31,424 nt of DNA from the IMG/VR virus record IMGVR_UViG_3300000133_000001, positions 1-31,424 of that record; one strand, 5' to 3'. Origin of the DNA: a virus. Positions 373 to 25,759 of the stretch are shown here, piece by piece; position 1 is the stretch's first letter, and each line of letters begins with the position of its first letter. The translations under genes and the position numbers were made by a program. Below the pieces are notes generated by a model. That model worked only from the letters and a program-made list of their open reading frames with translations, searched no databases and had not been told where the DNA came from.

Positions 373-916
373 CATAAAACTAATTAAAACACCAATACAA
401 GCATATAAATTATTATTAGAAAAAACTGATGTAGATGTATATAAAAAAACTAGGGTACGAGTAGTGATAGAACATCGTGCTTTTTTTTGTTATATATTAA
501 GAAAGAAGTTTAAAATGACATATCACGCAATAGCAATTTTTATGCGTAAACAATCAGAGATAAATTCTTATGATCACGCAACTGCAATACACGCAGTAAG
601 ACAATTTGATATATACAAAAAAGCATCATTTGAATATTTTGATAAACTTGAAAGTCATTTTATTATACCAAAGCATTTTGAATACTCTGAACTTTCTAAA
701 CTATTAACTGTTCAAAAAGATTATACAAAAGCATTACAAAAAATAAATAAATATGAAAAAAAGATATATTCAAATCTTACTGATAATGAAATAGAGTATA
801 GAGATTTAGATGAAGCACAAAAGAAACAATATGATGAAAGGGCAAGTATAGTATTGAAGTCTTTTAGTTGGAAGAAACCAAAAAATGAATATGAAATAAT
901 AAACTGTGGATCGTGA
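365..916 (+). CDS. DnaA domain IV-like helix-turn-helix DNA-binding protein (stand-alone)
   Basis: KKTRVRVVIEHRAFFCYILRKKFKMTYHAIAIFMRKQSEINSYDHATAIHAVRQFD follows the DnaA C-terminal pattern (R..i..aR.iamYl.r.lt..s...IG..f..rDHtTVlHA.rki). ATG at 365 overlaps the upstream stop by 8 nt. 332 is an alternative start. Confidence 0.65.
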   Translation: MDSIKLIKTPIQAYKLLLEKTDVDVYKKTRVRVVIEHRAFFCYILRKKFKMTYHAIAIFMRKQSEINSYDHATAIHAVRQFDIYKKASFEYFDKLESHFIIPKHFEYSELSKLLTVQKDYTKALQKINKYEKKIYSNLTDNEIEYRDLDEAQKKQYDERASIVLKSFSWKKPKNEYEIINCGS

Positions 917-2166
917 TAAAAACGGGAAGTGATTTTAGCGGAGTGGGTGCATTTGACCAAGCCTTAAGAAAGTTAGGTATTGACTATCAAACTGTGTATG
1001 CTTGTGATTGGGATAAATACGCAAGGCAAACCTATATAGAAAACTATGGTGAACCAATGTATTTTCCTAAAGATGTTTATGAGAGAGAAATACCAAAAGA
1101 AAGTTTAGATTTATATATGACATCACCACCTTGTCAAGCATTTAGTCTTGCTGGAAAACGTAAAGGTGAAGATGATGAAAGGGGTATCTTGTTTTACAAC
1201 TCACACGAGTTTATACAAAAGAACAATCCAAGATATTTTATATTTGAAAATGTTAGGGGTTTATTGTCAGATGCAAATGGTTTAACTTTTAAAGTATGGT
1301 TAGATATGTTAGGTGGTAAATCAGTTAACGGTAACCCAGTTTTGTTTCCAAATGAAAAATCAACTCCATATCATATATATTGGCAAGTGCTAAACGCAAA
1401 ACACTATGGTGTTCCACAGAACAGAGAAAGGGTTTTTATTATTGGTATAAGAGATGATGCAGATAACACCTTTAGGTTTCCAAAAACACAACACCTAACA
1501 AAAAAACTAAAAGATGTATTAGAAGATAGTGTAGATGATAAATACTTTTTGAGTGATAAGATGGTAAAATATTTTACAGATAATCAAAAGGGGAAAGGCA
1601 ATGGGAGAGCAACAGAATTTTTAACTGGTGATGAAGATAATACCAATTGTTTGTTATCTTCTTACTGGAGACAACCAAAAGATGGTATATATTTAAAAGT
1701 ACCATCAGCAACAAAAAAAGGTTTTGAAATAGCAACAGATCAAGACAGTATAAACTTTAGTGTACCTAATTCTAAAACAAGGAGAGGCAGAGTTGGAAAA
1801 GGTGTAGCACAAACATTAGATACTGCTTGTAATCAAGGTGTGATAAGCACAAACAACAAAAGAGTAAACCAAAACTATAATAAACATAAAGAAAGTTTAG
1901 AGAAAGGTGATTTTATGGATAGCTACAATCAAACAATACACAAAGAGGTAACACCAACAATAACAACAAGAGTATCAGCAAGCAACTGTAGTCACATATT
2001 TGAAAAAAAACAAATAAGACGTTTAACACCAAGAGAGTGCTTTAGGCTAATGGACTTTCCAGAAGATTTTAAATGGTCAGTATCAGATACACAAGCATAC
2101 AAACAAGCTGGAAACTCAATAGTAGTAAATGTACTTGCAGAAATAATAAACAAACTTAACCTATGA
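913..2166 (+). CDS. DNA (cytosine-5)-methyltransferase
   Basis: Canonical m5C motifs are present: I DFSGVGAF, IV SPPCQAFS, VI FENV, VIII QNRERVFIIG, IX RRLTPRECFRLMDFP, X YKQAGNSIVVNV. GTG start in a GTGA overlap with the upstream stop. About 190 aa lie between motifs VIII and IX. Confidence 0.93.
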   Translation: MIKTGSDFSGVGAFDQALRKLGIDYQTVYACDWDKYARQTYIENYGEPMYFPKDVYEREIPKESLDLYMTSPPCQAFSLAGKRKGEDDERGILFYNSHEFIQKNNPRYFIFENVRGLLSDANGLTFKVWLDMLGGKSVNGNPVLFPNEKSTPYHIYWQVLNAKHYGVPQNRERVFIIGIRDDADNTFRFPKTQHLTKKLKDVLEDSVDDKYFLSDKMVKYFTDNQKGKGNGRATEFLTGDEDNTNCLLSSYWRQPKDGIYLKVPSATKKGFEIATDQDSINFSVPNSKTRRGRVGKGVAQTLDTACNQGVISTNNKRVNQNYNKHKESLEKGDFMDSYNQTIHKEVTPTITTRVSASNCSHIFEKKQIRRLTPRECFRLMDFPEDFKWSVSDTQAYKQAGNSIVVNVLAEIINKLNL

Positions 2167-2399
2167 TTAAAAAAGAATGGCTATTTATGGAAACACCAAA
2201 AGAGAAAGCATACAGCCTACATAAGAAGTTTTACAATGTGGATGGTCAAGACTTTCACAATACAATGAGTAGTAAGATAGCAAAGCAATGTGCTAAAGTA
2301 CATATAAGACTTATACTTGAAAACGAAATACTAAAACCACATAACAAGATAACACTAGAATACTATCAAGAAGTACTAAACGAAATAGAAAAGCTATGA
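2163..2399 (+). CDS. Hypothetical protein (78 aa)
   Basis: ATGA overlaps at both ends indicate translational coupling. No recognisable motif. Confidence 0.6.
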   Translation: MIKKEWLFMETPKEKAYSLHKKFYNVDGQDFHNTMSSKIAKQCAKVHIRLILENEILKPHNKITLEYYQEVLNEIEKL

Positions 2400-3226
2400 A
2401 AGAAAATTTATTAGTTAGCTTTAGCGGTGGAGAAACAAGTGCTTATTTAGCAAAGTGGTTATTAGATAATAAATCAGAAGTTTACAATCTTATTTTTGTT
2501 TTTGCCAATACTGGTGATGAAGAAGAAGAAACTTTGCTCTTTATAGATAAATGCTCAAAAGAATGGAGTATAAATATAGTTTGGGTAGAGGCTGTTGTAC
2601 ATCACAATGAAAGGATTGGAAGCACACACAAAATAGTTAACTTTAAAACCGCATCAAGAAATAGAGAACCTTACAAAGAAGTTATAAAAAAGTATGGCAT
2701 ACCAAACCAGAATTTTCTACATTGTAATAGAGAAATGAAACTCAATCCTATTAAAAGTTATATTAAAAGTTTAGGCTGGAAAAAATATAAAACCGCAATA
2801 GGTATCAGAGTAGATGAATTTGATAGGATGAACAAACATAGAGAAAAACTGGGTTTAATTTATCCTTTTATATCTGATAAACCAACAAGCAAACAAGAAG
2901 TTTCTTATTGGTGGTCAACGCAAAAATTTAGACTGAAACTAAAAAGCTATAATACAAATTGCAAGACTTGCTGGAAAAAATCAGATAAAGTTTTAGCACA
3001 AGTATATAGGGACAATCCAAACTACTTTGATTTTAATAAAGAAATGGAAGATAAATATGGAAAAAATAAATACACATTTTTCAGAAATGGAAGAAGCACA
3101 GAAGAACTAAAAGAAGATTTAAAAAAAATAAACAAAGCACCAAAGGACAAACACGAAGATATAAATTTTCAAACAGATTTATTTTCACAAAGCTGTGACA
3201 TATATTCTATGTGTGGTGATGATTAA
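2396..3226 (+). CDS. PP-loop ATP pyrophosphatase / PAPS-reductase-family protein with a C-terminal 4-Cys cluster
   Basis: N-terminal PP-loop LLVSFSGGETSAYL (SGGxxS). Central ..LHCNREMKLNPIKSYI.. is typical of the PAPS_reduct family. C-terminal CKTCW (CxxC) and SCDIYSMCG (Cx5C) are present, but there is no ECGLH motif of true CysH. Confidence 0.75.
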   Translation: MKENLLVSFSGGETSAYLAKWLLDNKSEVYNLIFVFANTGDEEEETLLFIDKCSKEWSINIVWVEAVVHHNERIGSTHKIVNFKTASRNREPYKEVIKKYGIPNQNFLHCNREMKLNPIKSYIKSLGWKKYKTAIGIRVDEFDRMNKHREKLGLIYPFISDKPTSKQEVSYWWSTQKFRLKLKSYNTNCKTCWKKSDKVLAQVYRDNPNYFDFNKEMEDKYGKNKYTFFRNGRSTEELKEDLKKINKAPKDKHEDINFQTDLFSQSCDIYSMCGDD

Positions 3227-3392: not shown

Positions 3393-3659
3393 ATGGATAA
3401 AAGAAAAAATAACGGTGGTGTAAGGGAAGGTGCTGGCAGACCAAAGAAAGCAGATGAACTAAAACTAATAGAAAAACTTGATAACCTTATAGATAATGAT
3501 GAGGTAATAAAAACACTAGGCAAACAAATACTAAAAGGTGATAGTCGTGCTATGTCGTTGTACTTTGGTTACAGATACGGTAAGCCAAAAGAAAGTGTAG
3601 ACATAACCTCAACAGATGGTTTCAATATTAACTTTAATGATATTATCAAGTTTAAGTGA
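3393..3659 (+). CDS. terS: Terminase small subunit (putative)
   Basis: 88 aa. N-terminal NNGGVREGAGRPKK is the G-x-R-x-GAGRPkk DNA-binding motif common in small terminases. It lies immediately upstream of, and overlaps, terL. Confidence 0.65.
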   Translation: MDKRKNNGGVREGAGRPKKADELKLIEKLDNLIDNDEVIKTLGKQILKGDSRAMSLYFGYRYGKPKESVDITSTDGFNINFNDIIKFK

Positions 3660-4864
3660 TAGAAGTTGATCCAAAGTATAAACCAATCCAAACATCAGAT
3701 GCTAGGTATTATATTGTAACTGGTGGTAGGGGTTCTGGTAAATCGTATTCTATAAACTTACTATTGTTGTTGCTCACTTTTGAAGCTGGGCATACAATCT
3801 TGTTTACTAGGTTTACATTATCATCTGCATACATTTCTATTATACCAGAGTTTATAGACAAGATAGAAACACTTAACTTACAAGATGCTTTTTATATAAC
3901 AAAAGATGAAATACGAAATAAGCTATCTGGTAGCAAGATAATCTTTAAAGGTATCAAGACATCAAGCGGTGACCAAACAGCCAACCTAAAGTCTTTAACT
4001 AATGTTAGCACTTGGGTAATGGATGAAGCAGAAGAACTGCAAGATGAAAACATCTTTGACAAAATAGATTTAAGTGTTAGAAACCTAAACCAAAAGAATA
4101 GGGTAATACTTATTTTAAACCCAGTTACAAAAGAGCATTGGATATACAATAGGTTCTTTGAAGATAAAGGTGTGCAAGCTGGTACAAACACAACCAAAGG
4201 AAATACAACCTACATACACACAACTTATTTAGATAACGTAGAAAACCTATCTAAAAGTTATTTAGAGCAAATAGAAAACATTAAGAAACGCAGACCAGAG
4301 AAATACAAGCACCAAATGCTTGGGGGCTGGTTGGCAAAAGCAGAGGGTGTAATATTCAGTAACTGGCAGATAGGTGAGTTTAAAAAAGTAGGTGTAAGTG
4401 TGTTTGGTCAAGATTATGGTTTTGCATCAGATGAAAATACATTAGTAGAAACTAACATAGATACAAACAACAAGATAATCTATTTAAAGGAGTGCTTTTA
4501 CTTGAAAGGTCTTACCACATCACAAATAGCTGAACTAAACCTTAAACACGCAAAAAACCATCTTATAGTAGGTGATAGTGCTGAACCAAGATTGTTACAC
4601 GAACTGAAAGCAAAAGGTTGCAATGTAGTCAAAGCAATAAAAGGTCAAGGTTCAATTACATACGGCATAGCATTACTACAAGACTATGATCTAGTTGTAG
4701 AAGAAAACAGTATCAACTTAATCAAAGAACTAAACAACTACTCTTGGTTGGAGAAAAAGTCTAAAACACCACAAGACAAATTCAACCACATCATTGATGC
4801 AATCCGTTATAGTGTATCATATCAACTGCAAAACCCAAACAGAGGTAACTACTACATATCTTAA
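3656..4864 (+). CDS. terL: Terminase large subunit (PBSX/XtmB-like)
   Basis: Walker A YYIVTGGRGSGKSYS and Walker B WVMDEAEE. The C-terminal nuclease-type region has conserved Asp residues (VGDSAEP, IIDAIRY). GTG start in a GTGA overlap with terS. Confidence 0.9.
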   Translation: MIEVDPKYKPIQTSDARYYIVTGGRGSGKSYSINLLLLLLTFEAGHTILFTRFTLSSAYISIIPEFIDKIETLNLQDAFYITKDEIRNKLSGSKIIFKGIKTSSGDQTANLKSLTNVSTWVMDEAEELQDENIFDKIDLSVRNLNQKNRVILILNPVTKEHWIYNRFFEDKGVQAGTNTTKGNTTYIHTTYLDNVENLSKSYLEQIENIKKRRPEKYKHQMLGGWLAKAEGVIFSNWQIGEFKKVGVSVFGQDYGFASDENTLVETNIDTNNKIIYLKECFYLKGLTTSQIAELNLKHAKNHLIVGDSAEPRLLHELKAKGCNVVKAIKGQGSITYGIALLQDYDLVVEENSINLIKELNNYSWLEKKSKTPQDKFNHIIDAIRYSVSYQLQNPNRGNYYIS

Positions 4865-5222: not shown

Positions 5223-5357
5223 ATGAAAAAGATAATAGATAAATTTCTAATTAAAAGAAGCATCAGACCATACAAGATAGTAGCTTTAAGTACTGGTGTA
5301 ATTGTAGAACATTACCGTAATGGTAAATTAAAAACAGAATATTATGGATTGGTATAG
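5223..5357 (+). CDS. Small hypothetical ORF (44 aa; MKKIIDKFLIKRSIRPYKIVALSTGVIVEHYRNGKLKTEYYGLV)
   Basis: Hand-translated. It starts 3 nt after the previous stop and overlaps the next small ORF. Confidence 0.4.
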   Translation: MKKIIDKFLIKRSIRPYKIVALSTGVIVEHYRNGKLKTEYYGLV

Positions 5358-5457
5358 CCCACCAGAGTACAAAGATTATGAATGCACAGAATGTGGTGCA
5401 GATATAGACCACGAGGGTGTGTGTAGTGGCACTTGTCACGAAGCAAGTATGATTTAG
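5344..5457 (+). CDS. Small Cys-rich ORF (37 aa; MDWYSPPEYKDYECTECGADIDHEGVCSGTCHEASMI)
   Basis: Hand-translated. CxxC...CxxxC spacing resembles a zinc ribbon. It is followed by a terminator. Confidence 0.4.
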   Translation: MDWYSPPEYKDYECTECGADIDHEGVCSGTCHEASMI

Positions 5458-5480
5458 TTAAGTTGAGTTAGTTTTGTTTA

Positions 5481-5512
5481 AAAGGTGCATCAGAAATGGT
5501 GTACCTTTTTTT
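5481..5512 (+). terminator. Rho-independent terminator closing the packaging operon
   Basis: aaaggtgca (5481-5489) pairs with tgtaccttt (5500-5508), giving 9 bp with one G-U pair. The loop is 10 nt and a T-run extends to 5512. Confidence 0.7.
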
Positions 5513-5528
5513 ATTATATTTACCTTAC

Positions 5529-5559
5529 TATAAAAAACCATTTTAAAAACGTTATATAA
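5529..5559 (+). promoter_or_regulatory. Putative phage late promoter, copy 2 (TATAAA-N15-CGTTATATAA)
   Basis: CGTTATATAA at 5550-5559 ends 2 nt before the ATG at 5562. It lies just downstream of the 5481-5512 terminator. Confidence 0.65.
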
Positions 5560-5561
5560 GT

Positions 5562-6212
5562 ATGAATATCAATATTACAGTACCAAATGATTTAAGTGAA
5601 ATTACTTTAAGGCAGTATAAGCACTTTCTTAAAATACAGAAAAATGTAGATGATGAGAGTTTTTTAAATGCAAAAATCATTGAAATATTTTGCAAGTTAA
5701 ACCTTGAAGATGTAATGAGGTTGAAGTTTAATGATAGTGAATTAATAGTAAGTACACTTACAGAAATGTTTGAGCAGAAGCCTAACCTAGTTAGAAGTTT
5801 TAAGCTAAACAATATTAACTATGGGTTTCATCCACAACTAGATGATTTAACTTTAGGGGAGTATATAGATTTAGATACCTTTATTGGAGACTGGGAAAAT
5901 ATAGAAAAAGCTATGTCAGTTTTATATAGACCAGTAGTAAACAAGATAAAAGACAAATACACAATAGAAGAATACAAAGTAGGTAAGGATCAAGAGATTT
6001 TAGATATGCCTATGGATGCAGTCTTGTCATCAATTTTTTTTTTGTGGAATTTAGGTCTGGACTTGTCGAAAACTATGATGAATTATTTGGACAAGGATCA
6101 AACACAAGCCTTGACGCAGTATCTAACTTCACAACCAAATGGGGATGGTATAACTCAATTTACGGACTTGCTCAAGGAGACATTACAAGATATGAAAATA
6201 TCACTAAACTAG
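5562..6212 (+). CDS. Structural-module protein, frame-0 product (216 aa); possible tail assembly chaperone-like short form
   Basis: First gene behind late promoter copy 2. It contains the T10 tract at 6034-6043. Its last 56 codons overlap an open -1 frame. Confidence 0.7.
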   Translation: MNINITVPNDLSEITLRQYKHFLKIQKNVDDESFLNAKIIEIFCKLNLEDVMRLKFNDSELIVSTLTEMFEQKPNLVRSFKLNNINYGFHPQLDDLTLGEYIDLDTFIGDWENIEKAMSVLYRPVVNKIKDKYTIEEYKVGKDQEILDMPMDAVLSSIFFLWNLGLDLSKTMMNYLDKDQTQALTQYLTSQPNGDGITQFTDLLKETLQDMKISLN

Positions 6213-6298
6213 GAGTACACGAATGTTTTATGATGCTATCCTTTATGAAAGACAAAGCAGAAGTAGAAGCAAAAAGAATTAAACAAAATTTCAAATGA
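5562..6298 (+). CDS. Putative -1 frameshift or slippage fusion product, join(5562..6041,6041..6298), about 245 aa
   Basis: The -1 frame ORF (..VEFRSGLVENYDELFGQGSN..WGWYNSIYGLAQGDITRYENITKLGVHECFMMLSFMKDKAEVEAKRIKQNFK) ends in an ATGA overlap with the next gene (6295). The frame-0 stop at 6212 leaves an 82-nt gap instead. Confidence 0.45.
6034..6043 (+). other. T10 homopolymer / slippery site (att ttt ttt ttg in frame 0)
   Basis: Ten consecutive T. Frame 0 reads I-F-F-L. The -1 frame is open from 5987 and runs to 6298. Confidence 0.9.
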
Positions 6299-6765
6299 GC
6301 CAACAAGGTATAAGAGGATATTATCAATTAACCTCAACAATAGAAGAACAATTAAGAAGTACTGAATTTACTAATACAGTTTCTATTGGTGACATAAGCA
6401 AAGTGAACCTAAACAAGCAAGACATATTTCCATTAGCACATATGATTGTAAATAGTGTTTCAGCAGAAGAACAAGTGTTGAGGTTTAACATAAGCATCCT
6501 AGCTTGTGATATTGTAGATCAATCAAAGGATATAACAACAGATAGATTTACTGGCAATGATAATGAGCAAGATATTCTAAACACGCAGCTACTAGTCTTA
6601 AACAAGCTAATACAGAAGTTAAGGATGGGTTCATTACATACAGATATGTACCAACTAGATGGCAATCCAAGTTTAACACCATTTAATGATAGGTTTGAAA
6701 ACCAACTTGCTGGATGGAGTGCTACAATGACTATACTAATTTACAATGATATATATATTTGTTAA
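6295..6765 (+). CDS. Hypothetical virion-module protein (156 aa)
   Basis: ATGA-coupled to the -1 frame ORF upstream and TAATG-coupled downstream. No recognisable motif. Confidence 0.7.
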   Translation: MSQQGIRGYYQLTSTIEEQLRSTEFTNTVSIGDISKVNLNKQDIFPLAHMIVNSVSAEEQVLRFNISILACDIVDQSKDITTDRFTGNDNEQDILNTQLLVLNKLIQKLRMGSLHTDMYQLDGNPSLTPFNDRFENQLAGWSATMTILIYNDIYIC

Positions 6766-7295
6766 TGGATTTTAAAAATGTAGATGAGGTTTTAAATGCT
6801 TATGCTGAATATGTAGTAGATAGTGCAAAGAAAAACCTAGTTGATGAAAGAAAAAGTTTAGGTGATTTATATAAATCAGTTAGCTACAAATATGAAAAAA
6901 GCCAAGATCTGTTTTTGTTAGATTTTCTAATGGAAGATTATGGAACTTTTGTAGATAAAGGTGTAAGGGGTAAAACCTCAACCTATCCAGAAACAAGTGC
7001 AGCACTATCACAATTTCAATATGGTAGTGGTAATTTTCCAAAGGGTGGTTTAACAGAGGGTATTAAAGGTTGGTTAGAAAAGAAAAGGTTTCAATGGAGA
7101 GATAAAAAAGGTAAATTTATGAGTTATGATACAATGACTTATTTAATATCAAGATCAATTTACAACAAGGGTTTAAAAGCAAACTTATTCTTTACTACAC
7201 CATTTGAACTAGGTTTACAAAAGTTACCAAAACAATTAACAGATGCTTTTTCACTAGATATAGAAAACGCAATTATACTAGGAACAAAAAAATAA
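6765..7295 (+). CDS. Putative head-tail joining / tail completion protein (HK97 gp10-like)
   Basis: The pattern ..YAEYVVDSAKKNL..GDLYKSV..EDYGTFVDKGVRG.. resembles the HK97 gp10 family (..ak..ap..tG.L..si....ya..vE.G). ATG at 6765 in a TAATG overlap. The track start at 6759 is TTG. Confidence 0.4.
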   Translation: MDFKNVDEVLNAYAEYVVDSAKKNLVDERKSLGDLYKSVSYKYEKSQDLFLLDFLMEDYGTFVDKGVRGKTSTYPETSAALSQFQYGSGNFPKGGLTEGIKGWLEKKRFQWRDKKGKFMSYDTMTYLISRSIYNKGLKANLFFTTPFELGLQKLPKQLTDAFSLDIENAIILGTKK

Positions 7296-7298
7296 GAT

Positions 7299-7442
7299 AT
7301 GGATTGGACATTAGGCATAGCATTTCATTTTCCACATAACAGATTTATGTTAGGTTGGGAGTACATAGCAAAAGATGAAAGGTACACATACACAACAATA
7401 AGACTATATTTATTTATAGCTACACTAACACTAGATTTTTAA
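7299..7442 (+). CDS. Small hypothetical ORF (47 aa; MDWTLGIAFHFPHNRFMLGWEYIAKDERYTYTTIRLYLFIATLTLDF)
   Basis: Hand-translated. It exactly fills the gap between 7295 and 7444. Confidence 0.4.
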   Translation: MDWTLGIAFHFPHNRFMLGWEYIAKDERYTYTTIRLYLFIATLTLDF

Positions 7443-8448: not shown

Positions 8449-10608
8449 ATGCGTAGACTACAGCTATACATAGGTACTGAAAGGGTAGATTTATTTAAGG
8501 ATGAAACAGTTTCACTTACACAAACAATCCAAAATGTAAAGGATATTGCAAAGGTGTTTACCGAGTTTACACAAACATTTGCAGTACCAGCATCTAAAGA
8601 AAACAATATAATATTTCAGCACTATTATAACTTTGATATTGATTTTGGTTTTGATGCAAGAAATAAAGCTGATGCAAGATTAGAGTTAAATGATTTGCCT
8701 TTTAAGAATGGTAAGATAAAACTTAATAGTGTTGATTTAAAAAACAATGTTGCTCATACATATCACATTACTTTCTTTGGTAATACGGTAAACCTTAAAG
8801 ATGTTTTAGGCGATGACTTGTTGAGTAGTTTGGGTGCATTAGATGATAATTCACAAGTATATGCCTACCAAGATATTGTAGATATATTACAAGGATTTCC
8901 AACTGGGAATAATAATATTGTAGTGCCTTTAATCTCACATACAAATAGACTTATTTATAATTCCGGTTCACATACAACATATGACCCAGAAGCAACAACA
9001 AATAATATAAGCCATCACGGTACTGGAACACAAAACCAAAATGGTGTAGATTGGAAGCAATTCAAATATGCTTTAAGAGTACAAGCTATAATTGATGCAA
9101 TAGAAAGTAAATACACTATTGCAAATGGCTATGGTTCAGATATTGTTTTTTCAGATGATTTTTTTAATGATACTACTAATGAAGAATTTGATGATTTATT
9201 TATATGGTTGCATAGAAAAAAAGGTAATGTAGAAACACCAAGCTTCGGAGATGCGAGTTGGACATCAGTAACAGAATTAGGAACAGAAACAACAAGTGGT
9301 GATTATGATGAAATGACACCCGTTGGATTTATTGAATTTGGAAATTTAAATATTGATACATCAAATGGAGATTATAGCCTAGATACACCACAAGTAGATT
9401 TATTATTTACACCTACAAATCTTTTATTAGCTTATGATATTAGAGTAACAGAAACAAACACCGGAACTACGGTAACAGAAAATGGTGTTTCTGGACAATA
9501 TCCTTTTTATACAAATGAACAATTACCCGATGGTACATATACAATAGAAATCAGAAGTGATGTGTTGGTGCAATTTGGAGCGGGTGGTATTAAATGGACA
9601 CTAGATGCAGAAGAAAGAGATGATGAACAACAATCATTAAATGGCTCTGTTGTATTTGAAAATGCTGCAACATTTGGAACTAGTGCGGTATTTGAGTTTA
9701 ATATCACACAACAAATACCTAAAATTAAGACTATAGATTTTTTATCTGGCTTATTTAAAATGTTTAACCTTACTGCCTTTGTGAATGATGTGGGGACAAT
9801 AGTTGTAAGAACTTTGGATAGTTATTATGCAGCGGGTTCACAAACACCAATAAACATAGATAAATATTTAGATACTAAAACATCAAAGGTTGAGGTTGCA
9901 TTGCCTTTTAAAGAAATAAATTTTAGTTATAAAGGTTTAGGTACTTTATTCGCTAAACAATTTGAACAAATATATAATTCCGGTTGGGGTTCTATAAGCT
10001 ATAAATTAAACAATAGAATATATGATGCACCAACAGAAAATTATAAAGTGGAACTGCCTTTTGAGCATATGCAATATGAAAGACTTTATGATATTGACCC
10101 AAGTGGATCTGGAGCATCAACTACAGTACAATATGGTTATTTTGTAGATGATAATTTTGAACCTTACTATGGTGAACCTTTATTATTCTATCCTATCCTA
10201 AACAATGGTACATCAATAAGAATTAGAGATTATGATACCGGAGCTGCACCAGATGATATAACAAGATATTTTATACCATCAAATAGTTTGGCATTGTCTT
10301 GCCCAACAAGTAAAGTAAACATACATTTTCAAAATGAATATAATGAATATACAGTTAGGGAAGTTGGTGACCCAGGTTGTTTTACAGATACTTTATTTGA
10401 AACTAAATACAAGACTTATATTCAAGATGTGTTTAATGAAAAAAGAAGATTAATAAAAGTAACTGCTTTTCTACCTATGAAAGTTTATTATGATCTGGAA
10501 TTAAATGATTTGATAGAGTTGGGACAAGATAGTTACAAAATAAATTCTCTTAAAACAGATTTAACAACCGGTAAAACAGAATTAGAATTATTAAACACAA
10601 TATTATGA
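8449..10608 (+). CDS. Large virion structural protein (719 aa), putative tail tip / baseplate hub
   Basis: Size and position between the 334-aa structural protein and the tape-measure-like gene. No catalytic motif recognised. Confidence 0.6.
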   Translation: MRRLQLYIGTERVDLFKDETVSLTQTIQNVKDIAKVFTEFTQTFAVPASKENNIIFQHYYNFDIDFGFDARNKADARLELNDLPFKNGKIKLNSVDLKNNVAHTYHITFFGNTVNLKDVLGDDLLSSLGALDDNSQVYAYQDIVDILQGFPTGNNNIVVPLISHTNRLIYNSGSHTTYDPEATTNNISHHGTGTQNQNGVDWKQFKYALRVQAIIDAIESKYTIANGYGSDIVFSDDFFNDTTNEEFDDLFIWLHRKKGNVETPSFGDASWTSVTELGTETTSGDYDEMTPVGFIEFGNLNIDTSNGDYSLDTPQVDLLFTPTNLLLAYDIRVTETNTGTTVTENGVSGQYPFYTNEQLPDGTYTIEIRSDVLVQFGAGGIKWTLDAEERDDEQQSLNGSVVFENAATFGTSAVFEFNITQQIPKIKTIDFLSGLFKMFNLTAFVNDVGTIVVRTLDSYYAAGSQTPINIDKYLDTKTSKVEVALPFKEINFSYKGLGTLFAKQFEQIYNSGWGSISYKLNNRIYDAPTENYKVELPFEHMQYERLYDIDPSGSGASTTVQYGYFVDDNFEPYYGEPLLFYPILNNGTSIRIRDYDTGAAPDDITRYFIPSNSLALSCPTSKVNIHFQNEYNEYTVREVGDPGCFTDTLFETKYKTYIQDVFNEKRRLIKVTAFLPMKVYYDLELNDLIELGQDSYKINSLKTDLTTGKTELELLNTIL

Positions 10609-10748
10609 TTAAGAATATAATAGACTTATTGCAAGTTGTTGAGGCTGATACTGAAAACATAAGAATAGCACAAGGAAAATATAAATTAGCAGAAACCTTA
10701 AAAGAGGGTTACAATCAAATTAAAAGAGATTTAAAATGGCAAAAGTAG
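10605..10748 (+). CDS. Small hypothetical ORF (47 aa; MIKNIIDLLQVVEADTENIRIAQGKYKLAETLKEGYNQIKRDLKWQK)
   Basis: Hand-translated. ATGA overlap with 8449..10608 and a 13-nt overlap with the next gene. Confidence 0.4.
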   Translation: MIKNIIDLLQVVEADTENIRIAQGKYKLAETLKEGYNQIKRDLKWQK

Positions 10749-12379
10749 TAGAGGTTCAATTAATTGCTAAAACAGATGATGCAGTTGCTGGGGTTAATAA
10801 GGTAGATCAAGCAGTAAATAAAACTGGTAGGTCAGCTAAAAAGACTAACAAAGAACTTTCAGCCTTTTCAGAGGGTGGTAAACAACTAGTAAGTGCATTA
10901 GATAGACAAACTGGTGGGCTTGCATCTAAATTTGTTGCAGTAGGTAAGGCTGCAAAGTTAAGCGGTAAGGCTATGAAAACGGCTTTAATATCTAGTGGTA
11001 TTGGTTTGGCAGTTGTTGCAGTTGGATTGCTTGTTGAATATTGGGATGAAATAGGTGAAGCATTAGGGTTTATAAATAAAGATTTAGAAAATCAAGCTAT
11101 TGAAATAAATAAATCTATTGAAGCAAGTAATATAAAATTAGCATCATTAAAAAATCAACAAACTATACTTGAATTACAAGATAAAAGCACAACAAATATT
11201 AAAAATTCAATAAAAGAAGAATTGCTTTTGCAAGTACAGAAAAATGTTGAACTTTTAAAAAATCTACAAACACAATTAGAATTAGAAAAAAATAGCCAAA
11301 AAGAAGTAGGCTTTTTAGAAAAGGCTGCGTTTTGGGTTGGTACAAGACTTGGAAGCACAACAGCCCTAGCCTTTGCAGCAAGAGATATAACTAAAGAAAA
11401 CGAAAGACAAGAGGAAATACAAGAACAAATAAACAAAGCAAATACACAAGCAGAAAATCTTGCAATTTCATTGTTACAATTAGATAAAAAAGCTAATGAT
11501 GAAAAACAAAAAGCAGCAGATGAAGCAAACAAAGCAGTAGAAGAAGCAAATAGAAAAGCAAAAGAAGCTGAAAAAGAAAGGGTTGATGCTATTGAAAGAA
11601 TAAGAAAAGGTTTAATAGATACAGAGGCAGAAGAACGTGCAGAAAAATTAAGGCTAATTAAAGAAGATTATAATCAACAAATAGCATTAGCAGCAGAATT
11701 TTATGGAGCAAATTCAATAAAGATACTAGAATTAAAAGCAGCACAAAAAGCAGCAGAAGATCAACAACAAGCAGAATTTGATGAGCAAGATAAAGCAAGG
11801 CAAGATAAACTTGACGAAGAAGAAAAAAAGAGAAAAGAAAAACAATTAGCAGATGACAAGAAAATATCTGATGCAGCTATTAAAATTGCAGAATTAGAAG
11901 AAGAAGCTAAAAGAACATCATTAGAGGGTTATGCTGGTGCTATAAATAGTTTATCAAATACAATAGGTCAAGAAACTGCTGCTGGTAAAGGTTTGGCAGT
12001 TGCATCTTCATTAATAAATACCTATGCTGCTATAACTGGACAATTAAAAACTGCTGCTGGTTCACCGGGTGGTGCTATACCGGGTTATGCTATCGCACAA
12101 GCTATTGCAACGGGTGTTGCTGGTTTTGCTGCTGTTAAAAAGATTGTTGCCGTACAAGTGCCAGGAGGTGGCGGAAGTGGTTCAAGTCAAACTGGTTCGT
12201 TGCCTACAGTACCTACACCACCAGCATTTAATGTAGTAGGAGCAAGTGGAGAAACACAACTAGCAGATGCAATAGGTAGCCAAACACAAAGACCAGCAAG
12301 AGCATACGTTGTATCTAATGATGTAACAACTGCACAAGAAATGGATAGAAACATTATAGAGGGTGCTAGTATAGGCTAA
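10736..12379 (+). CDS. Tape-measure-like protein (547 aa)
   Basis: Hydrophobic segment ALISSGIGLAVVAVGLLV. A long Glu/Lys/Ala/Gln coiled-coil (..KAADEANKAVEEANRKAKEAEKER..). C-terminal Gly/Ala-rich hydrophobic block (AGKGLAVASSLINTYAAITGQL..GVAGFAAVKKIV). Confidence 0.55.
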   Translation: MAKVVEVQLIAKTDDAVAGVNKVDQAVNKTGRSAKKTNKELSAFSEGGKQLVSALDRQTGGLASKFVAVGKAAKLSGKAMKTALISSGIGLAVVAVGLLVEYWDEIGEALGFINKDLENQAIEINKSIEASNIKLASLKNQQTILELQDKSTTNIKNSIKEELLLQVQKNVELLKNLQTQLELEKNSQKEVGFLEKAAFWVGTRLGSTTALAFAARDITKENERQEEIQEQINKANTQAENLAISLLQLDKKANDEKQKAADEANKAVEEANRKAKEAEKERVDAIERIRKGLIDTEAEERAEKLRLIKEDYNQQIALAAEFYGANSIKILELKAAQKAAEDQQQAEFDEQDKARQDKLDEEEKKRKEKQLADDKKISDAAIKIAELEEEAKRTSLEGYAGAINSLSNTIGQETAAGKGLAVASSLINTYAAITGQLKTAAGSPGGAIPGYAIAQAIATGVAGFAAVKKIVAVQVPGGGGSGSSQTGSLPTVPTPPAFNVVGASGETQLADAIGSQTQRPARAYVVSNDVTTAQEMDRNIIEGASIG

Positions 12380-13696: not shown

Positions 13697-14293
13697 ATGG
13701 AAAAAACAAAAATGTTAAATCAAATTAGAACACTTTTAAACATCGAGGTAAAACTTGAAGAAATGAAGTTGGAAAACGGTACTGTAGTAAGTGCTGATAC
13801 ATTTGAAAAAGGAAGTGAAATTTTTATTGTCACAGACGATGAGAAAGTAGCAATGCCAGTAGGGGAATATATCCTTGAAGATGGTAGATTGGTTGTAGTA
13901 TCTGAAGAAGGTATGATTGCAGATGTCAGAGAAGTATCTGATGAAGTACCAGCTAAAGAAGAAACAGAAGATCTTGAAGAAGAAACTGTTGAAACAGAAG
14001 TACCAGCAGAGGTTGCTACAGAAGTTGAAGCAATTATTGAAGCAGTAGTTGAGGTTATTGCCCCAGTACTTGAAGAAGTAAAATCTGAAATTGAAGAACT
14101 TAAAAAAGAGTTTGGAAAAATGAGAAAATACGAAGACGAAAAAGAAGAAGACAAGAAAGAAGAAATGTCTGCTGCTAGAAAACCAATTAAACACAATCCA
14201 GAAGCAAAAGCACCACAAAAAAAACAAATGCAATTTGGTAAAGGACAATTCAACACAACACTAGATAGAGTATTAAATAAATTAAACAAATAA
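13697..14293 (+). CDS. Acidic scaffolding-like protein (198 aa)
   Basis: Immediately upstream of the capsid gene. Long Glu/Val/Ala-rich acidic helical region (EETEDLEEETVETEVPAEVATEVEAIIEAVVEV..) with a basic tail. Confidence 0.55.
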   Translation: MEKTKMLNQIRTLLNIEVKLEEMKLENGTVVSADTFEKGSEIFIVTDDEKVAMPVGEYILEDGRLVVVSEEGMIADVREVSDEVPAKEETEDLEEETVETEVPAEVATEVEAIIEAVVEVIAPVLEEVKSEIEELKKEFGKMRKYEDEKEEDKKEEMSAARKPIKHNPEAKAPQKKQMQFGKGQFNTTLDRVLNKLNK

Positions 14294-14294
14294 A

Positions 14295-15272
14295 ATGAAA
14301 AAAAGAAACGTAAATTTAGCGACAACCACTAACATAACGACTACGTATGCTGGAGAATTTGCTGGTGAGTATATCGCAGCGGCTTTATTATCTGCATCAA
14401 CAATTGATGATGGTGGTTTAACAGTAAAGGCAAACATCGCTTTTAAGGAAGTAATCAAGAAACTAGCTACAAATGCTTTGGTTCAACCAGCAACTTGTGA
14501 TTTTTCACCAACATCTACAATTACACTTACTGAAAGAATAATTACCCCCGTTGAGTTGGGTGTTTCGTTACAACTTTGTAAGTATGATTTTGTGAACGAT
14601 TGGGAGGCGCAATCTATGGGTTATGGTCTTGGTCAAACATTACCTCCAAAGTTTTCTGACTTTATGATTGCACACGTTGCATCTGAAGTAGCACAAAACA
14701 CAGAGTTTTGTATCTGGCAAGGTGATACGGCAGCGGGAACAAACAATTCTTTTGATGGGTTTGAAAAACTAATTGCAGCATCAGCAGCAGCGGGAGATAT
14801 TCCAGCGGCACAACAAGTAGCAGCAGTAGCTGGTGGATTGTTATCTACAAACATCATTGATGAACTTTCTAAAGTAGTTGATGCAATACCAGCAGCACTA
14901 TATGGAAAAGAAGATTTATTCTTATACATCGGAACTAAAGCAGCTAAACTATATGTACAAGCACTAGGTGGTTTTGGAGCAAATGGTTTAGGAGCAAATG
15001 GTGTGGCAAATATGGGAACGCAATGGTGGAACAATGGAAGCCTAACGGTGAATGGTGTAAAAATCTTTGTATGTCCGGGAATGTCTGACAACAAAATGTA
15101 TGCAGCACAACGTTCTAACTTATACTTTGGTACTGGGTTACTAAATTCAACAAACGAAGTAAAAGTACTAGATATGGCAGATTTAGATGGATCAAACAAT
15201 GTACGTATGATTATGAGATTTACATCAGCAGTACAATTCGGAATTTCATCTGATTTAGTAGAGTACGCATAA
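14295..15272 (+). CDS. Major capsid protein (HK97-fold type)
   Basis: 325 aa with a sequence pattern typical of HK97-family capsids (..TYAGEFAGEYI..VELGVSLQLCKYDF..FCIWQGDTAAG..FDGFEKLI..LFLYIGTKAAKLY..MIMRFTSAVQFG). It follows the scaffold-like gene and is followed by a strong terminator. Confidence 0.8.
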   Translation: MKKRNVNLATTTNITTTYAGEFAGEYIAAALLSASTIDDGGLTVKANIAFKEVIKKLATNALVQPATCDFSPTSTITLTERIITPVELGVSLQLCKYDFVNDWEAQSMGYGLGQTLPPKFSDFMIAHVASEVAQNTEFCIWQGDTAAGTNNSFDGFEKLIAASAAAGDIPAAQQVAAVAGGLLSTNIIDELSKVVDAIPAALYGKEDLFLYIGTKAAKLYVQALGGFGANGLGANGVANMGTQWWNNGSLTVNGVKIFVCPGMSDNKMYAAQRSNLYFGTGLLNSTNEVKVLDMADLDGSNNVRMIMRFTSAVQFGISSDLVEYA

Positions 15273-15291: not shown

Positions 15292-15329
15292 AAAGGGGTG
15301 GGTAGGTAATCTGCTCACCCTTTTTTTTT
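15292..15329 (+). terminator. Strong rho-independent terminator after the capsid gene
   Basis: gggtgggtag (15296-15305) pairs with ctgctcaccc (15311-15320), giving 10 bp with two G-U pairs. The loop is gtaat, followed by T9 at 15321-15329. It is preceded by a (TAAT)n run containing stop codons. Confidence 0.85.
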
Positions 15330-15887: not shown

Positions 15888-15917
15888 AAAGCATCCTTAA
15901 TCGGGTGCTTTTTTTTT
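15888..15917 (+). terminator. Rho-independent terminator
   Basis: aaagcatcc (15888-15896) pairs with gggtgcttt (15903-15911), giving 9 bp with one G-U pair. The loop is ttaatc and the T-run extends to 15917. Confidence 0.8.
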
Positions 15918-15956: not shown

Positions 15957-16346
15957 ATGATATTATTTAACACAACTGCCACAAATCAATTTACTATAAT
16001 ACCTAGAGATTATGTATCAAATGCATATATGACTATTAGAGATGATAGCACAAATGTAACTGTTGATTATACATTAGTACCTAGAGTTGCTGGTAGTGGT
16101 AATATTGAAATTTCAAATGATACCTACAATGTATATAATGATACCTATTCAAATTTAGTTGAGGGGCATTTTTATGATTTAACTATATATTCAGACATAG
16201 CAAAAACAAATGTAATATATAAGGATAGGATTTTCTGTACTGCACAAAAAGCAGAAATTGATGCAGATAACAATTATTTCTATAAAGTAAATAAAGACCA
16301 ATATACAGAATACGATGGTTTCAATAATGACTATATTGTAATATGA
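15957..16346 (+). CDS. Hypothetical virion-module protein (129 aa)
   Basis: First gene behind late promoter copy 5. ATGA overlap with the portal gene. Confidence 0.65.
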   Translation: MILFNTTATNQFTIIPRDYVSNAYMTIRDDSTNVTVDYTLVPRVAGSGNIEISNDTYNVYNDTYSNLVEGHFYDLTIYSDIAKTNVIYKDRIFCTAQKAEIDADNNYFYKVNKDQYTEYDGFNNDYIVI

Positions 16347-18382
16347 GAAAAAGAAACGAAAAAGGACAATTTAGCAAAACAAAAGTATCAGAGTTTGGCT
16401 TTGTAAATTTAAGTACATACACATCACCAGAGGTAAAAGAAGTTAATGGTGCTGATTGGATTGAATATGGTGCAGATAACAACTATTTTCAATTCCTTAT
16501 CGATAGATATAATGGTTCACCTACAAACAATGCAGCTATAAATGGTATATCACAAGCTATTTATGGTAAAGGTTTAAATGCAACAGATAGCAATAGAAAA
16601 CCAAATGAGTATGCACAGATGATTTCTTTGTTTAGGAAAGATGTTGTACGTAGGGCTTGTTATGATCTTAAACTTATGGGGCAAGCTGCAATACAAGTTA
16701 TCTACTCAAAGGATAGAAGCAAGATTGTTCAACTAGAACATATGCCTATTGAAACATTAAGAGCAGAAAAATGTGATGAAGATGGAAATGTACCAGCTTA
16801 TTACTATTTTAATGATTGGGCTAACATAAAAAAGACTGATGAACCATTAAGAATACCAGCTTTTGGTATGTCTAATGAAGAAATTGAGATATACTACATA
16901 AAACCTTATAAGAGTGGTTTCTATTACTACTCACCCGTAGACTATCAAGGAGGCTTGCAGTACGCAGAACTCGAAGAAGAGGTATCAAACTACCACCTCA
17001 ACAACATTATGAATGGTTTATCGCCATCGATGTTAATTAACTTTAACAACGGTACTCCTAACCAACAAGAAAGACAATTAATAGAAACGAAAATAGCATC
17101 TAAATTTTCGGGAACCAGCAATGCGGGCAAGTTCATACTAGCTTTTAATGACAATAAAGAAAGCCAAGCAGAAATAACACCAGTACAATTAAGTGATGCT
17201 CATAATCAGTATCAATTTTTGTCAGAAGAAAGCACGTCCAAAATCCAAATTGCCCATAGGGTGGTCTCACCTTTTTTATTAGGTATACAAACAAAAAACG
17301 GTTTTTCGTCAAATGCAGATGAAATAAAGACTGCATCTTTGTTAATGGATAACACCGTTATAAGACCATTTCAAGAACTTTTAATTGATAGCTTTGATAA
17401 TATACTAGCTTACAACGAAATCAGCTTAAACCTATACTTTACGACCTTACAGCCACTAGAATTTACAGAGGTAGACCAATCACTTCAAGACAATGAAACT
17501 ATTGAAGAAGAAACTGGTGTTGAAATGGCAGTTAATCTAAAAAAGATAGATGGCAAAGATGTATACAAAACCAAAGAAGAAGCTGAAAAAGTAGCAGATG
17601 AAATGGGTTGTGGTGGATCACACGAACACGAAATAGAGGGTGTTGTTTACTATATGCCTTGTGTATCACACGAAGAACTTAAAGCACCTTGTTGGGATGG
17701 ATATGAGCAAATAGGCACAAAAACAAAAGATGGCAAAGAAGTACCAAATTGTGTACCATTAAAACAAGAACTAACTGATGAAATGGCAACAGCTATTTTA
17801 GAAAACTTAAAGTATGAAACCATAACTGATGAATATGAATTGGTTGAAACTAGAGAGTATTCAGAAGAAAATAAAAGCACAGAAGATTGGGCAAAGTCAC
17901 TTATAAAAAGAAAACTATCAAGAATAAGAAAGTTTGCAGATTTTATAACATCAAAGCCTAATGAAGAAAGCAAGTTAGATAAATCATTTTACAAGATTAG
18001 ATACACATACCAACAAAGGGTTTCACCATCATCTACCAAAACTGGTAAAAGCAGAGATTTTTGCAAAACAATGATGGGCAGAACTAGTAAGGGTGTTGTG
18101 TATAGAAAAGAAGATATAGACAATGCATCTTTTTCTGGTGTGAATAATAACTTTGGTCATAAAGGACAAAATTATTCGCTTTTCCGCTTCAAGGGCGGTA
18201 TATACTGTGGACATTACTGGAGGGAAGAATTGTATAGAATGAAAAGTGAAACTGAAAAATACATATCAAGAGGTAAAGAAGTTAAATCAATACCAAACAA
18301 ATTTCAACCAAAAGGAACACAATACAAAGAAGCTGGTGAAGCACCAACTACTTGGACAGATAGAGGTGCATACCCAAACTAG
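16343..18382 (+). CDS. Portal protein with a C-terminal Cys-rich and MuF-like extension (679 aa)
   Basis: The first ~375 aa look portal-like (..GADWIEYGADNNYFQFLIDRYNGSPTNNAAINGISQAIYGKGL.. and ..SNAGKFILAF..PVQL..). The C-terminal ~300 aa carry GCGGSHEHEIEGVVYYMPCVSHEELKAPCWDGYEQIGTKTKDGKEVPNCVP and then ..KSRDFCKTMMG..VVYRKEDI..FRFKGGIYCGHYW.., which resembles head-morphogenesis (SPP1 gp7/Mu F) domains. Confidence 0.65.
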   Translation: MRKRNEKGQFSKTKVSEFGFVNLSTYTSPEVKEVNGADWIEYGADNNYFQFLIDRYNGSPTNNAAINGISQAIYGKGLNATDSNRKPNEYAQMISLFRKDVVRRACYDLKLMGQAAIQVIYSKDRSKIVQLEHMPIETLRAEKCDEDGNVPAYYYFNDWANIKKTDEPLRIPAFGMSNEEIEIYYIKPYKSGFYYYSPVDYQGGLQYAELEEEVSNYHLNNIMNGLSPSMLINFNNGTPNQQERQLIETKIASKFSGTSNAGKFILAFNDNKESQAEITPVQLSDAHNQYQFLSEESTSKIQIAHRVVSPFLLGIQTKNGFSSNADEIKTASLLMDNTVIRPFQELLIDSFDNILAYNEISLNLYFTTLQPLEFTEVDQSLQDNETIEEETGVEMAVNLKKIDGKDVYKTKEEAEKVADEMGCGGSHEHEIEGVVYYMPCVSHEELKAPCWDGYEQIGTKTKDGKEVPNCVPLKQELTDEMATAILENLKYETITDEYELVETREYSEENKSTEDWAKSLIKRKLSRIRKFADFITSKPNEESKLDKSFYKIRYTYQQRVSPSSTKTGKSRDFCKTMMGRTSKGVVYRKEDIDNASFSGVNNNFGHKGQNYSLFRFKGGIYCGHYWREELYRMKSETEKYISRGKEVKSIPNKFQPKGTQYKEAGEAPTTWTDRGAYPN

Positions 18383-24406: not shown

Positions 24407-24565
24407 ATGGTAACAGACTACAAAACACTTTTAATTAATCTAGGCACATTTATTTTTTCAATGTCAAACGTTGATGTATTTTTAAAGATCACACTTTTAC
24501 TTTTAACTATTGGGTATACCTCGCACAAGTGGTACTTAATGAATAAGAACAATGGAAAAAAGTAA
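24407..24565 (+). CDS. Small membrane protein (52 aa), holin candidate
   Basis: Hand-translated MVTDYKTLLINLGTFIFSMSNVDVFLKITLLLLTIGYTSHKWYLMNKNNGKK. It has two hydrophobic stretches and a basic C-terminus. It starts 2 nt after the endolysin stop. Confidence 0.5.
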   Translation: MVTDYKTLLINLGTFIFSMSNVDVFLKITLLLLTIGYTSHKWYLMNKNNGKK

Positions 24566-25013
24566 AAAAAAGTTTAAAGATACTAGGGTAGGTAAATTTC
24601 TTACTAAAGCTGCACCAAACATTCTTAAAGGTGTTAGTGATGTTGTGCCAGATGCTGGTATTTTAAAGCTGATAGGCGGTCTTATAAGTAAAGATGATGC
24701 ACTTACACCTAAAGACAAAGAAGAAGCCTTAAAGCTGCTTGAAATGGATATTATAGAAATGCAAGAAGTTTCTAAAAGGTGGGTTTCAGATATGTCAAGC
24801 GATAGTTGGTTGTCAAAGAATGTACGTCCAATGATGTTAATCTTTCTTACCATATCAACTTGGTTATTAATTCTTATGGATAGCCTTAATATTGAATTTG
24901 CTGTAGGTATTGAGTGGATAGATTTACTTAAATCACTTTTAATTGTTGTATATGTTTCATATTTTGGCTCAAGGGGTATTGAAAAATACAAATACATTTC
25001 TCAAAACAAATAG
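24552..25013 (+). CDS. Membrane protein (153 aa), holin/lysis-accessory candidate
   Basis: Two predicted transmembrane segments near the C-terminus (VRPMMLIFLTISTWLLILM and LLKSLLIVVYVSYFG). It overlaps the 52-aa ORF by 14 nt and is the last gene of the late cluster. Confidence 0.6.
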   Translation: MEKSKKKFKDTRVGKFLTKAAPNILKGVSDVVPDAGILKLIGGLISKDDALTPKDKEEALKLLEMDIIEMQEVSKRWVSDMSSDSWLSKNVRPMMLIFLTISTWLLILMDSLNIEFAVGIEWIDLLKSLLIVVYVSYFGSRGIEKYKYISQNK

Positions 25014-25734: not shown

Positions 25735-25759
25735 GGCTTTATGTCAAGCCTTTTTTTTT
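25735..25759 (+). terminator. Rho-independent terminator (short stem, T9)
   Basis: ggctt (25735-25739) pairs with aagcc (25746-25750). The loop is tatgtc, followed by T9 at 25751-25759. Confidence 0.55.

Follow-up and report, generated by a model that had tools for sequence, protein, structure and literature searches.

How many proteins does a phage gene specify when its reading frame runs through ten consecutive T's, and which part of the expression machinery changes frame there? The question is raised by a gene in the IMG/VR virus record IMGVR_UViG_3300000133_000001, of which positions 1 to 31,424 were analyzed (hereafter the window, 31,424 nucleotides in full). The original prediction, made from the letters of this DNA, had set three explanations side by side: a programmed -1 frameshift, transcriptional slippage, or a homopolymer error. 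Our comparisons show that the tract is a real, ancient, and unannotated programmed -1 recoding site, and that the gene belongs to a new and very abundant family of phage proteins. The recoding itself is secure. The best overall explanation, to which we assign a probability of roughly 0.55, is that two isoforms are made, mainly by transcriptional slippage with a ribosomal contribution.

The site comprises the following elements, all on the + strand, where ORF denotes an open reading frame:

5562..6212, +, frame-0 ORF corresponding to the short isoform of 216 amino acids, with N-domain residues 1-160 followed by a 56-residue frame-0 tail (IFFLWNLGLDLSK...KISLN, then stop)
5562..6043, +, shared N-terminal domain of about 160 amino acids, with a predicted alpha/beta fold and variation dominated by frame-0 wobble positions
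6034..6043, +, T10 recoding (slip) site, read from the sequence, with the run conserved in relatives
6035-6041 (T_TTT_TTT) and 6038-6044 (T_TTT_TTG), +, in-phase heptamers inside T10
6041..6298, +, -1 frame extension, the 85-residue C-terminal domain of the long isoform (FVEFRSGLVENYDELFG...KWGWYNSIYGLAQGDITRYENITKLGVHECFMMLSFMKDK...NFK, then stop)
6044..6212, +, dual-coding overlap of 169 nucleotides in which frame 0 and the -1 frame are both open
6049..6054, +, invariant TTTAGG, encoding L-G in frame 0 and F-R in the -1 frame, with TAG (6052-6054) in the +1 frame
6295..6765, +, downstream gene of 156 amino acids, whose ATG overlaps the long-isoform stop (ATGA)

In frame 0, codons 158-161 of ORF 5562..6212 read the tract as ATT TTT TTT TTG (I F F L). 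A TAA (5984-5986) bounds the -1 frame upstream; beginning at 5987, this frame stays open as far as its TGA (6296-6298), which overlaps the ATG of ORF 6295..6765 as ATGA. A -1 shift in the run gives 245 amino acids (160 shared plus 85), and the unshifted product is 160 plus 56. The original prediction had described this arrangement: the position and phase of T10, the -1 frame open from 5987 to 6298 with about 170 nucleotides of overlap, the 160 shared residues with tails of 56 versus 85, the U UUU UUU and U UUU UUG heptamers, and the fact that the -1 frame, not frame 0, is coupled to the next gene at 6295. Each of these particulars agrees with the sequence; the overlap spans 169 nucleotides (6044-6212), and both heptamers are in phase. 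Because a TAG in the +1 frame lies three codons past the run, a shift in the opposite direction would truncate the product to about 163 amino acids, and database proteins of 159-165 amino acids ending in ...VFFII or ...VFFTI are such opposite-shift variants. T10 is the sole homopolymer of at least nine nucleotides within any long ORF of the window. Three more T9 runs are all intergenic (15321-15329, 15909-15917, and 25751-25759, after ORFs ending at 15272, 15867, and 25690) and are probably terminator tails rather than recoding sites.

Conservation of the run is strict among close relatives. A protein search with the fused 245-residue query returned 2619 relatives, in which the 216-residue frame-0 form predominated, and the exact 216-residue protein (P0024) occurs in at least 24 independent assemblies produced by SPAdes, MEGAHIT, JGI, and Logan pipelines. 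Exactly T10, together with the invariant GTGGAATTTAGG, was present in 74 of the 76 IMG/VR loci that cover the site (57-99% protein identity); the frame-0 ORF in the T10 loci has 216 codons' worth of residues, or 215 in two cases. T10 was likewise invariant among 63 unique relatives, although codon usage would produce it for I-F-F-L only 18% of the time.

The arrangement extends far beyond these relatives. DNA was taken for four further subfamilies, 30-45% identical to the window protein, from marine and freshwater viromes, yielding 277 unique genes in five subfamilies on IMG/VR contigs, each with the N-domain in one frame and a KWGWY-type C-domain in the -1 frame (counts of start codons and ATGA overlaps use 287 unique genes, and the stop-avoidance test uses 286). 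At the homologous codon, the run is T9 in 209/277 and T10 in 65/277, while T5-T8 runs are absent (0/277). The C-terminal domain (KWGWY...GD...) lies in the -1 frame in every subfamily, the -1 stop overlaps the next gene as ATGA in 193 of 287 genes, and the tract and both frames are kept in about 280 unique genes, down to roughly 26% identity. When 1.84 billion cluster representatives were searched with a profile, 2975 clusters (50% identity) matched at E<=1e-3, most of them 214-250 amino acids long with a profile match only to about residue 170, which is the short-form architecture. Searches with individual members were narrower: P0182 retrieved a single locus, and P0164 retrieved V-F-F-Y-type relatives, with the Y-F-F-F-V type not among them. 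Taken together, these comparisons indicate that the same unannotated device is present in hundreds of marine and freshwater phage genomes.

Cultured phages carry the device as well. The nearest cultured relatives of the window are the siphoviruses Nonlabens (Persicivirga) phage P12024S and P12024L (genus Inhavirus), which were found by tblastn alone (portal 36% identical, recoded gene about 26%); a megablast of positions 5300-6800 against the INPHARED phages gave no match. As in the window, the P12024S/L gene follows the terminase gene and has a homopolymer at the same codon (T9 in phase 1, CTT TTT TTT TAT), from which the -1 frame continues uninterrupted into the next annotated ORF (gp39 in one phage, gp41 in the other). 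Unlike the window, P12024S/L have T9 in phase 1 rather than T10, a shorter frame-0 tail (175 amino acids in total), and no ATGA coupling to the next gene. GenBank and RefSeq split the gene in both phages into hypothetical proteins, gp38+gp39 and gp40+gp41 (NC_018271 23136-23830; NC_018272); the corresponding relatives in our set are L081:9001-9695 for the NC_018271 locus and L337:401-1095 for the NC_018272 locus. Judging from the T9 run and the continuous -1 frame, each pair is one recoded gene.

These distributions bear directly on whether the frame break is an artifact. If the run were a homopolymer sequencing or assembly error, or the gene a recently inactivated pseudogene, the true gene would be a single 245-residue ORF with T11. 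Single-ORF versions of that length do exist in databases (about 30 of the top 120 matches), and a T11 allele occurs in one MEGAHIT contig and in locus L001. However, about 274 of 277 unique genes, spread over many samples, assemblers, and habitats, combine T9 or T10 with a frame break, and the frame-broken run is also present in the two isolate genomes. Two single-ORF contigs from ENA are long-read-style, carry names giving 1.75x and 3.27x coverage, and still have the alternative frame open and conserved, while other single-ORF entries have compensating indels elsewhere; furthermore, selection keeps frame 0 open, as described below. The 245-residue single-ORF matches were also considered as a possible ancestral state, which was ruled out: they are T(n+1) variants or carry compensating indels, several are from low-coverage contigs, and the alternative frame is open in them. 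We therefore give an error or pseudogene next to no credence, and the sequences indicate that T10 is a real conserved recoding signal. Of the explanations in the original prediction, recoding stands and homopolymer error does not; the outcome that it had named as refuting, relatives without the overlapping frame, was not observed, since both the tract and the two frames are conserved.

Rare alleles could alternatively reflect a switch at the DNA level, in which replication slippage would interconvert T10 genomes, coding for the short form, and T11 genomes, coding for the long one, and a mixed phage population would thereby supply both proteins. Runs of this length are mutable, and a handful of run-length variants were found (T11 in L001, T12 in L060, T11 in L339 (P0001), T11 in L083, and T10 instead of the expected T9 in L082), which either restore the reading frame of the long form or disrupt the gene in the opposite direction and may be errors, natural alleles, or sequence derived from transcripts. 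The T11, T12, and T8-type alleles (L001, L060, P0001, and the truncated 159-165-residue proteins) are what such phase variation would leave behind. Yet the variants are a small minority, several of them from low-coverage assemblies: L001 and L060 share one JGI sample series (3300037031, 3300037034), and two others are on the 1.75x and 3.27x contigs. A lytic phage that required both isoforms could not depend on co-infection, and a run length that stays constant across deep divergence is unexpected for a hypervariable switch. Phase variation is thus very improbable as the source of the two forms.

Substitution patterns suggest that both frames beyond the run are translated. In the window subfamily, the N-domain is most variable at frame-0 wobble positions (0.95 bits versus 0.38 and 0.26), and past the frame-0 stop the maximum moves to -1-frame wobble positions (0.48 versus 0.10 and 0.19). 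Within the 169-nucleotide overlap, nucleotide entropy is reduced (0.31 versus 0.53 in the N-domain), with similar variation in the two wobble classes. The -1-frame coding signature was also seen independently in subfamily 2. The pattern of variation indicates that the -1 frame is under purifying selection and translated. Frame 0 was assessed by a stop-avoidance test in which the -1 protein was held fixed and synonymous codons were resampled from the window's own usage. With a G+C content of 31.9%, off-frame stop codons are frequent in the window, and frame 0 remained open for at least 55 codons in just 0.085% of trials (P=0.00085; median 6 codons), compared with 0.9% in the reciprocal test. 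In 20 genes of the window, open stretches in the wrong frame averaged 8.4 codons and reached 62 at most. For 286 unique genes, P had a median of 0.004 and fell below 0.05 in 92%, and frame 0 remains open for 50-90 codons beyond the site in every gene. By this test, frame 0 is held open by selection. A conserved frame-0 motif, NG.GI..F, was considered as an independent sign of a functional short tail and rejected, as KWGWY in the -1 frame forces it.

Could the -1 ORF instead be a separate gene, translated from its own start (GTG at 6044 in the window), as the annotation of P12024S gp39 implies? A GTG does lie directly after the run in the window subfamily, and GenBank has a separate 55-residue ORF in P12024S/L. 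However, between the upstream -1 stop and 15 codons beyond the run, neither ATG nor GTG nor TTG occurs in 158 of 287 unique genes, an ATG is present in only 4 of 287, and the conservation of the -1 peptide starts upstream of the ATG used for P12024S gp39; indeed, the peptide is conserved from the first codon past the run (F-R-x-R...Y..LFG). The lack of a usable start in those 158 genes excludes separate initiation as a general mechanism, and we consider two independent genes highly unlikely. The tract, the two frames, their conservation, the selection on them, and the lack of a start codon for separate initiation are directly supported. Selection on the -1 frame, an open frame 0, and the missing -1 start in most genes together imply that two isoforms are made, with 160 N-terminal residues in common.

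The level at which the frame changes has to be inferred from the form of the site. The T9 run is achieved in three codon phases: phase 1 encodes V/I/L-F-F-Y/W/C/S (gTT TTT TTT Tnn), phase 0 encodes Q/E/M-F-F-F-L with Leu always CTN (nnn TTT TTT TTT CTn), and phase 2 encodes S/G/Y-F-F-L (nnT TTT TTT TTr), while the long-form residue after the run is S, L, or V depending on phase. Neighboring codons compensate for one another: among representatives at 50% identity, a preceding codon able to supply only a single T is followed by Leu (TTR) in 6 of 7 cases, versus 17 of 108 otherwise (Fisher p=2e-4), a compensation that a 7-nucleotide heptamer does not need. Run length is thus conserved irrespective of codon phase and encoded residues, indicating that the run length itself is under selection. 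With three phases and differing residues, the nine T's are explained neither by the protein nor by a 7-nucleotide heptamer.

No conserved or unusually stable RNA structure was found upstream or downstream of the run in the five subfamilies or in the lineage with a heptamer described below (RNAalifold 0 to -2 kcal/mol), and minimum-free-energy z-scores around the run in the same groups were -0.9 to +0.65, so that no stimulatory element was apparent. A search of Rfam gave no match, and a terminator scan placed no hairpin beside T10. The T9 in all phases and the lack of RNA structure favor slippage by the polymerase, nine being the length that matches the RNA:DNA hybrid. The hybrid in bacterial RNA polymerase is 9-10 base pairs, and slippage in vivo is efficient on nine consecutive A's or T's (PMC5009743). 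At least nine A or T in a row serve for programmed transcriptional slippage in dnaX of Thermus thermophilus, in the type III secretion genes mxiE, spa13, spa33, and mxiA of Shigella, and in many insertion sequence elements (PMC5009743); the window has T10, and 274 of 277 unique genes have T9 or T10.

We propose that a single start codon at 5562 would give rise to two proteins. Standard decoding would yield the 216-residue short isoform, whereas a -1 change of frame within T10 (6034-6043) would yield the 245-residue long isoform, which would join the 160-residue N-domain to a different, conserved 85-residue C-terminal domain. In a fraction of transcripts, the host RNA polymerase would add one U on the 9-10-nucleotide homopolymer that fills its RNA:DNA hybrid, and normal translation of these transcripts would produce the long form. 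Ribosomal -1 slippage on the in-phase U_UUU_UUU and U_UUU_UUG heptamers probably contributes and apparently took over entirely in one lineage. By analogy with lambda G/GT, the two isoforms, in a fixed ratio, may act as an assembly factor for the neck or tail genes that follow.

Several observations weigh against this proposal. Three loci (L245-L247, 80-97% mutually identical) lack the homopolymer and have in its place a canonical in-phase heptamer, GT(A AAT TTT)AT; they are GC-richer, their -1 C-domain is intact, and it is still ATGA-coupled to the next gene. The heptamer of these loci agrees with ribosomal -1 frameshifting, and slippage by the polymerase would hardly account for it. Moreover, an in-phase X_XXY_YYZ heptamer occurs in every T9/T10 variant, so ribosomal frameshifting alone could account for expression. 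As for the short isoform, the frame-0 motif NG.G is forced by KWGW in the -1 frame, which makes part of the short-tail conservation automatic, and the frame-0 tail of subfamily 2 varies most at the second codon position; the short tail is accordingly less constrained than the long one, and that it is functional is argued chiefly from the avoidance of stops. Selection on the sequences is also the basis for positing a long form at all, and for any isoform ratio, and a role in tail assembly would be drawn from analogy. The three loci (L245:1651-1700, L246, and L247) are IMG/VR 3300020043_004103, 3300033064_002639, and 3300020043_005376, with the local sequence GCC GTA AAT TTT ATA TAC.

The shift could then be purely translational, with the ribosome slipping by -1, inefficiently and unaided by a stimulator, on U_UUU_UUU or U_UUU_UUG just as it does in lambda G/GT; the two additional T's would be incidental or would aid slipperiness. 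The slippery site that this calls for is present in phase in every variant, as AT(T TTT TTT) and TT(T TTT TTG) in the window and as the classic A_AAT_TTT in L245-L247, which keep the -1 domain without a homopolymer. Nor would the missing RNA structure count against it, since a stimulatory element is not obligatory: lambda G/GT likewise lacks a strong one (PMC5009743). What it leaves unexplained is the absence of T7 or T8 in 277 unique genes, the attainment of T9 by three codon-phase solutions with compensating neighbor codons, and the Leu after FFF that is always CTN, which holds the run at exactly nine. A run of 9-10 T's under a bacterial polymerase would, furthermore, be expected to slip regardless. 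We regard exclusively ribosomal slippage as a real alternative, though less likely than not. The two mechanisms yield the same protein and the comparative evidence points both ways; we favor, only modestly, polymerase slippage as the main selected mechanism in the T9/T10 majority, with ribosomal slippage contributing.

Known systems provide partial parallels. The original prediction had likened the locus to the tail assembly chaperones of lambda, gpG/gpGT, whose -1 frameshift is conserved (Levin, Hendrix, and Casjens 1993; Xu, Hendrix, and Duda 2004, 2013, 2014, summarized in PMC5009743). As in G/GT, a single start would give two products with a common N-terminal part, the longer one reached through a -1 change into a second frame that overlaps the first. 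No strong RNA stimulator is present, the layout has persisted despite sequence divergence, and the gene is part of a morphogenesis operon in a siphovirus-like genome. Unlike the G/GT gene, which is located between the major tail and tape measure genes, the recoded gene is the first after the large terminase subunit. Its site is a T9-T10 homopolymer rather than a 7-nucleotide heptamer, its zero-frame product runs 56-90 codons beyond the site so that the frames overlap extensively, and its shared part is larger (160 amino acids, alpha/beta), with no similarity in sequence or fold to known chaperones. The locus thus resembles G/GT in making two products by a programmed -1 shift and differs in both position and sequence or fold. 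Of the suggested resemblance, then, the logic of the system survives (two isoforms, a set ratio, and one common domain, to which the analogy would be confined), and membership of the family fails on position and similarity.

Likenesses to known transcriptional slippage are that 9-10 T's equal the hybrid length, that no accessory structure is present, and that one added nucleotide leads to the -1 frame and a C-terminally extended product; as in Shigella spa13/spa32, the extended frame closes in an overlap with the following gene's start. The locus differs from the described cases in belonging to a phage virion-assembly operon and in having one lineage with a canonical ribosomal heptamer. We are not aware of any published case in which polymerase slippage is used productively in such an operon. 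Literature searches found nothing relevant on this recoding in flavobacterial phages or on T9 slip sites in phages.

The protein itself is not recognizable as a tail assembly chaperone. AlphaFold2 (AF2) predicted the N-domain as an alpha/beta domain with high confidence (predicted local distance difference test score, pLDDT, 80-94 over residues 1-170) and the -1 domain as low-confidence helices. Pfam gave no match at E<=1 for either isoform, a PDB sequence-profile search gave nothing below E=0.06, and Foldseek found no fold match in the PDB (best E 0.8). Against BFVD, Foldseek found 41 uncharacterized phage proteins at E<=1e-3, including P12024S gp38 (UniProt I6R9M9), and one weak match (E=0.06) to a protein named tail assembly chaperone. 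Among PHROG families, residues 4-172 matched positions 2-161 of the 175-position profile phrog_32199 (unknown function; E=6.7e-17), whose length is that of the 175-residue P12024S gp38, and a weak lead pointed to phrog_166, 'tail protein' (E=0.025).

The genomic setting is that of a morphogenesis region. Assigned by PHROG, the genes run from a DNA methyltransferase and a PAPS-reductase-like protein through the large terminase subunit (3656-4864) to the recoded gene, followed by unknown proteins of 156, 178, 334, and 719 amino acids, a tape-measure-like gene (10736-12379), a protease, probable scaffold and capsid genes, portal (16343-18382), a 1396-residue tail protein, and an endolysin. The same small genes come next in the relatives examined, in which the recoded gene is also first after the terminase gene, and synteny in P12024S is the same as in the window. 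ORFs of 156, 178, 47, 334, 719, and 47 amino acids separate the recoded gene from the tape-measure-like ORF, in keeping with the original observation that the two are not adjacent. Upstream of the recoded gene, one further element was found:

5480..5519 (hairpin 5480-5509), +, strong intrinsic-terminator-like hairpin with a T tail, consisting of a 13-pair stem followed by TTTATTATAT

Given this hairpin, the recoded gene appears to begin a new transcription unit after the terminase gene.

The 156-residue downstream product is possibly a tail-terminator or neck-like protein. Its AF2 model (pLDDT 44, from a shallow alignment of sequences at least 88% identical) consists of a beta-hairpin, a long helix, and a second beta-hairpin, and gave repeated weak Foldseek matches (E 0.04-0.3) to lambda gpU, to connector proteins of Bxb1, Douge, and Mycofy1, and to a monocin cap. 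Two close homologues of this gene, P0317 and P0325, are on contigs of 84,970 and 40,263 bp, while most related contigs end at 28-34 kb, close to the length of the window; no terminal direct repeat was found in the window.

Other features of the window are peripheral to the recoded gene. The DNA methyltransferase (417 amino acids) and PAPS-reductase-like protein (276 amino acids) lie at 913-3226, just upstream of the terminase genes, and may form a DNA-modification module. Two 47-residue ORFs (7299-7442 and 10605-10748) lie between larger structural genes. A 48-residue ORF precedes the tape-measure-like gene in a 58%-identical relative (L082:5429-5575), and from this matching position at least the ORF at 10605-10748 is probably real. 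Mirror-image ORFs occur on opposite strands at two places, 13697..14293(+) with 198 amino acids versus 13720..14325(-) with 201, and 24552..25013(+) versus 24536..24997(-), both with 153; such pairs are unusual at 32% G+C.

For annotation, the finding means that gene callers and annotators split or truncate the recoded gene across thousands of contigs from environmental phages as well as in two isolate genomes, and recognizing the site gives a conserved domain of 85-92 amino acids back to its protein. Long homopolymers in phage ORFs should consequently not be automatically "corrected" during assembly polishing. The occurrence of T9 across three phases, together with one heptamer lineage, is a natural experiment with which transcriptional and translational recoding could be told apart. 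It is possible, at odds that we put a little short of even, that a very large aquatic siphovirus-like clade (about 3000 clusters at 50% identity) depends on programmed RNA-polymerase slippage at a hybrid-length T9-T10 run for the long isoform of an undescribed morphogenesis protein. If so, this would be, to our knowledge, the first productive transcriptional slippage in a phage virion-assembly gene, and it would provide a natural interconversion with a canonical ribosomal heptamer (A_AAT_TTT) inside one gene family. The strategy of making two isoforms by -1 recoding is extended here to an unrelated family at a different genomic position, which suggests that it arose more than once in phage morphogenesis.

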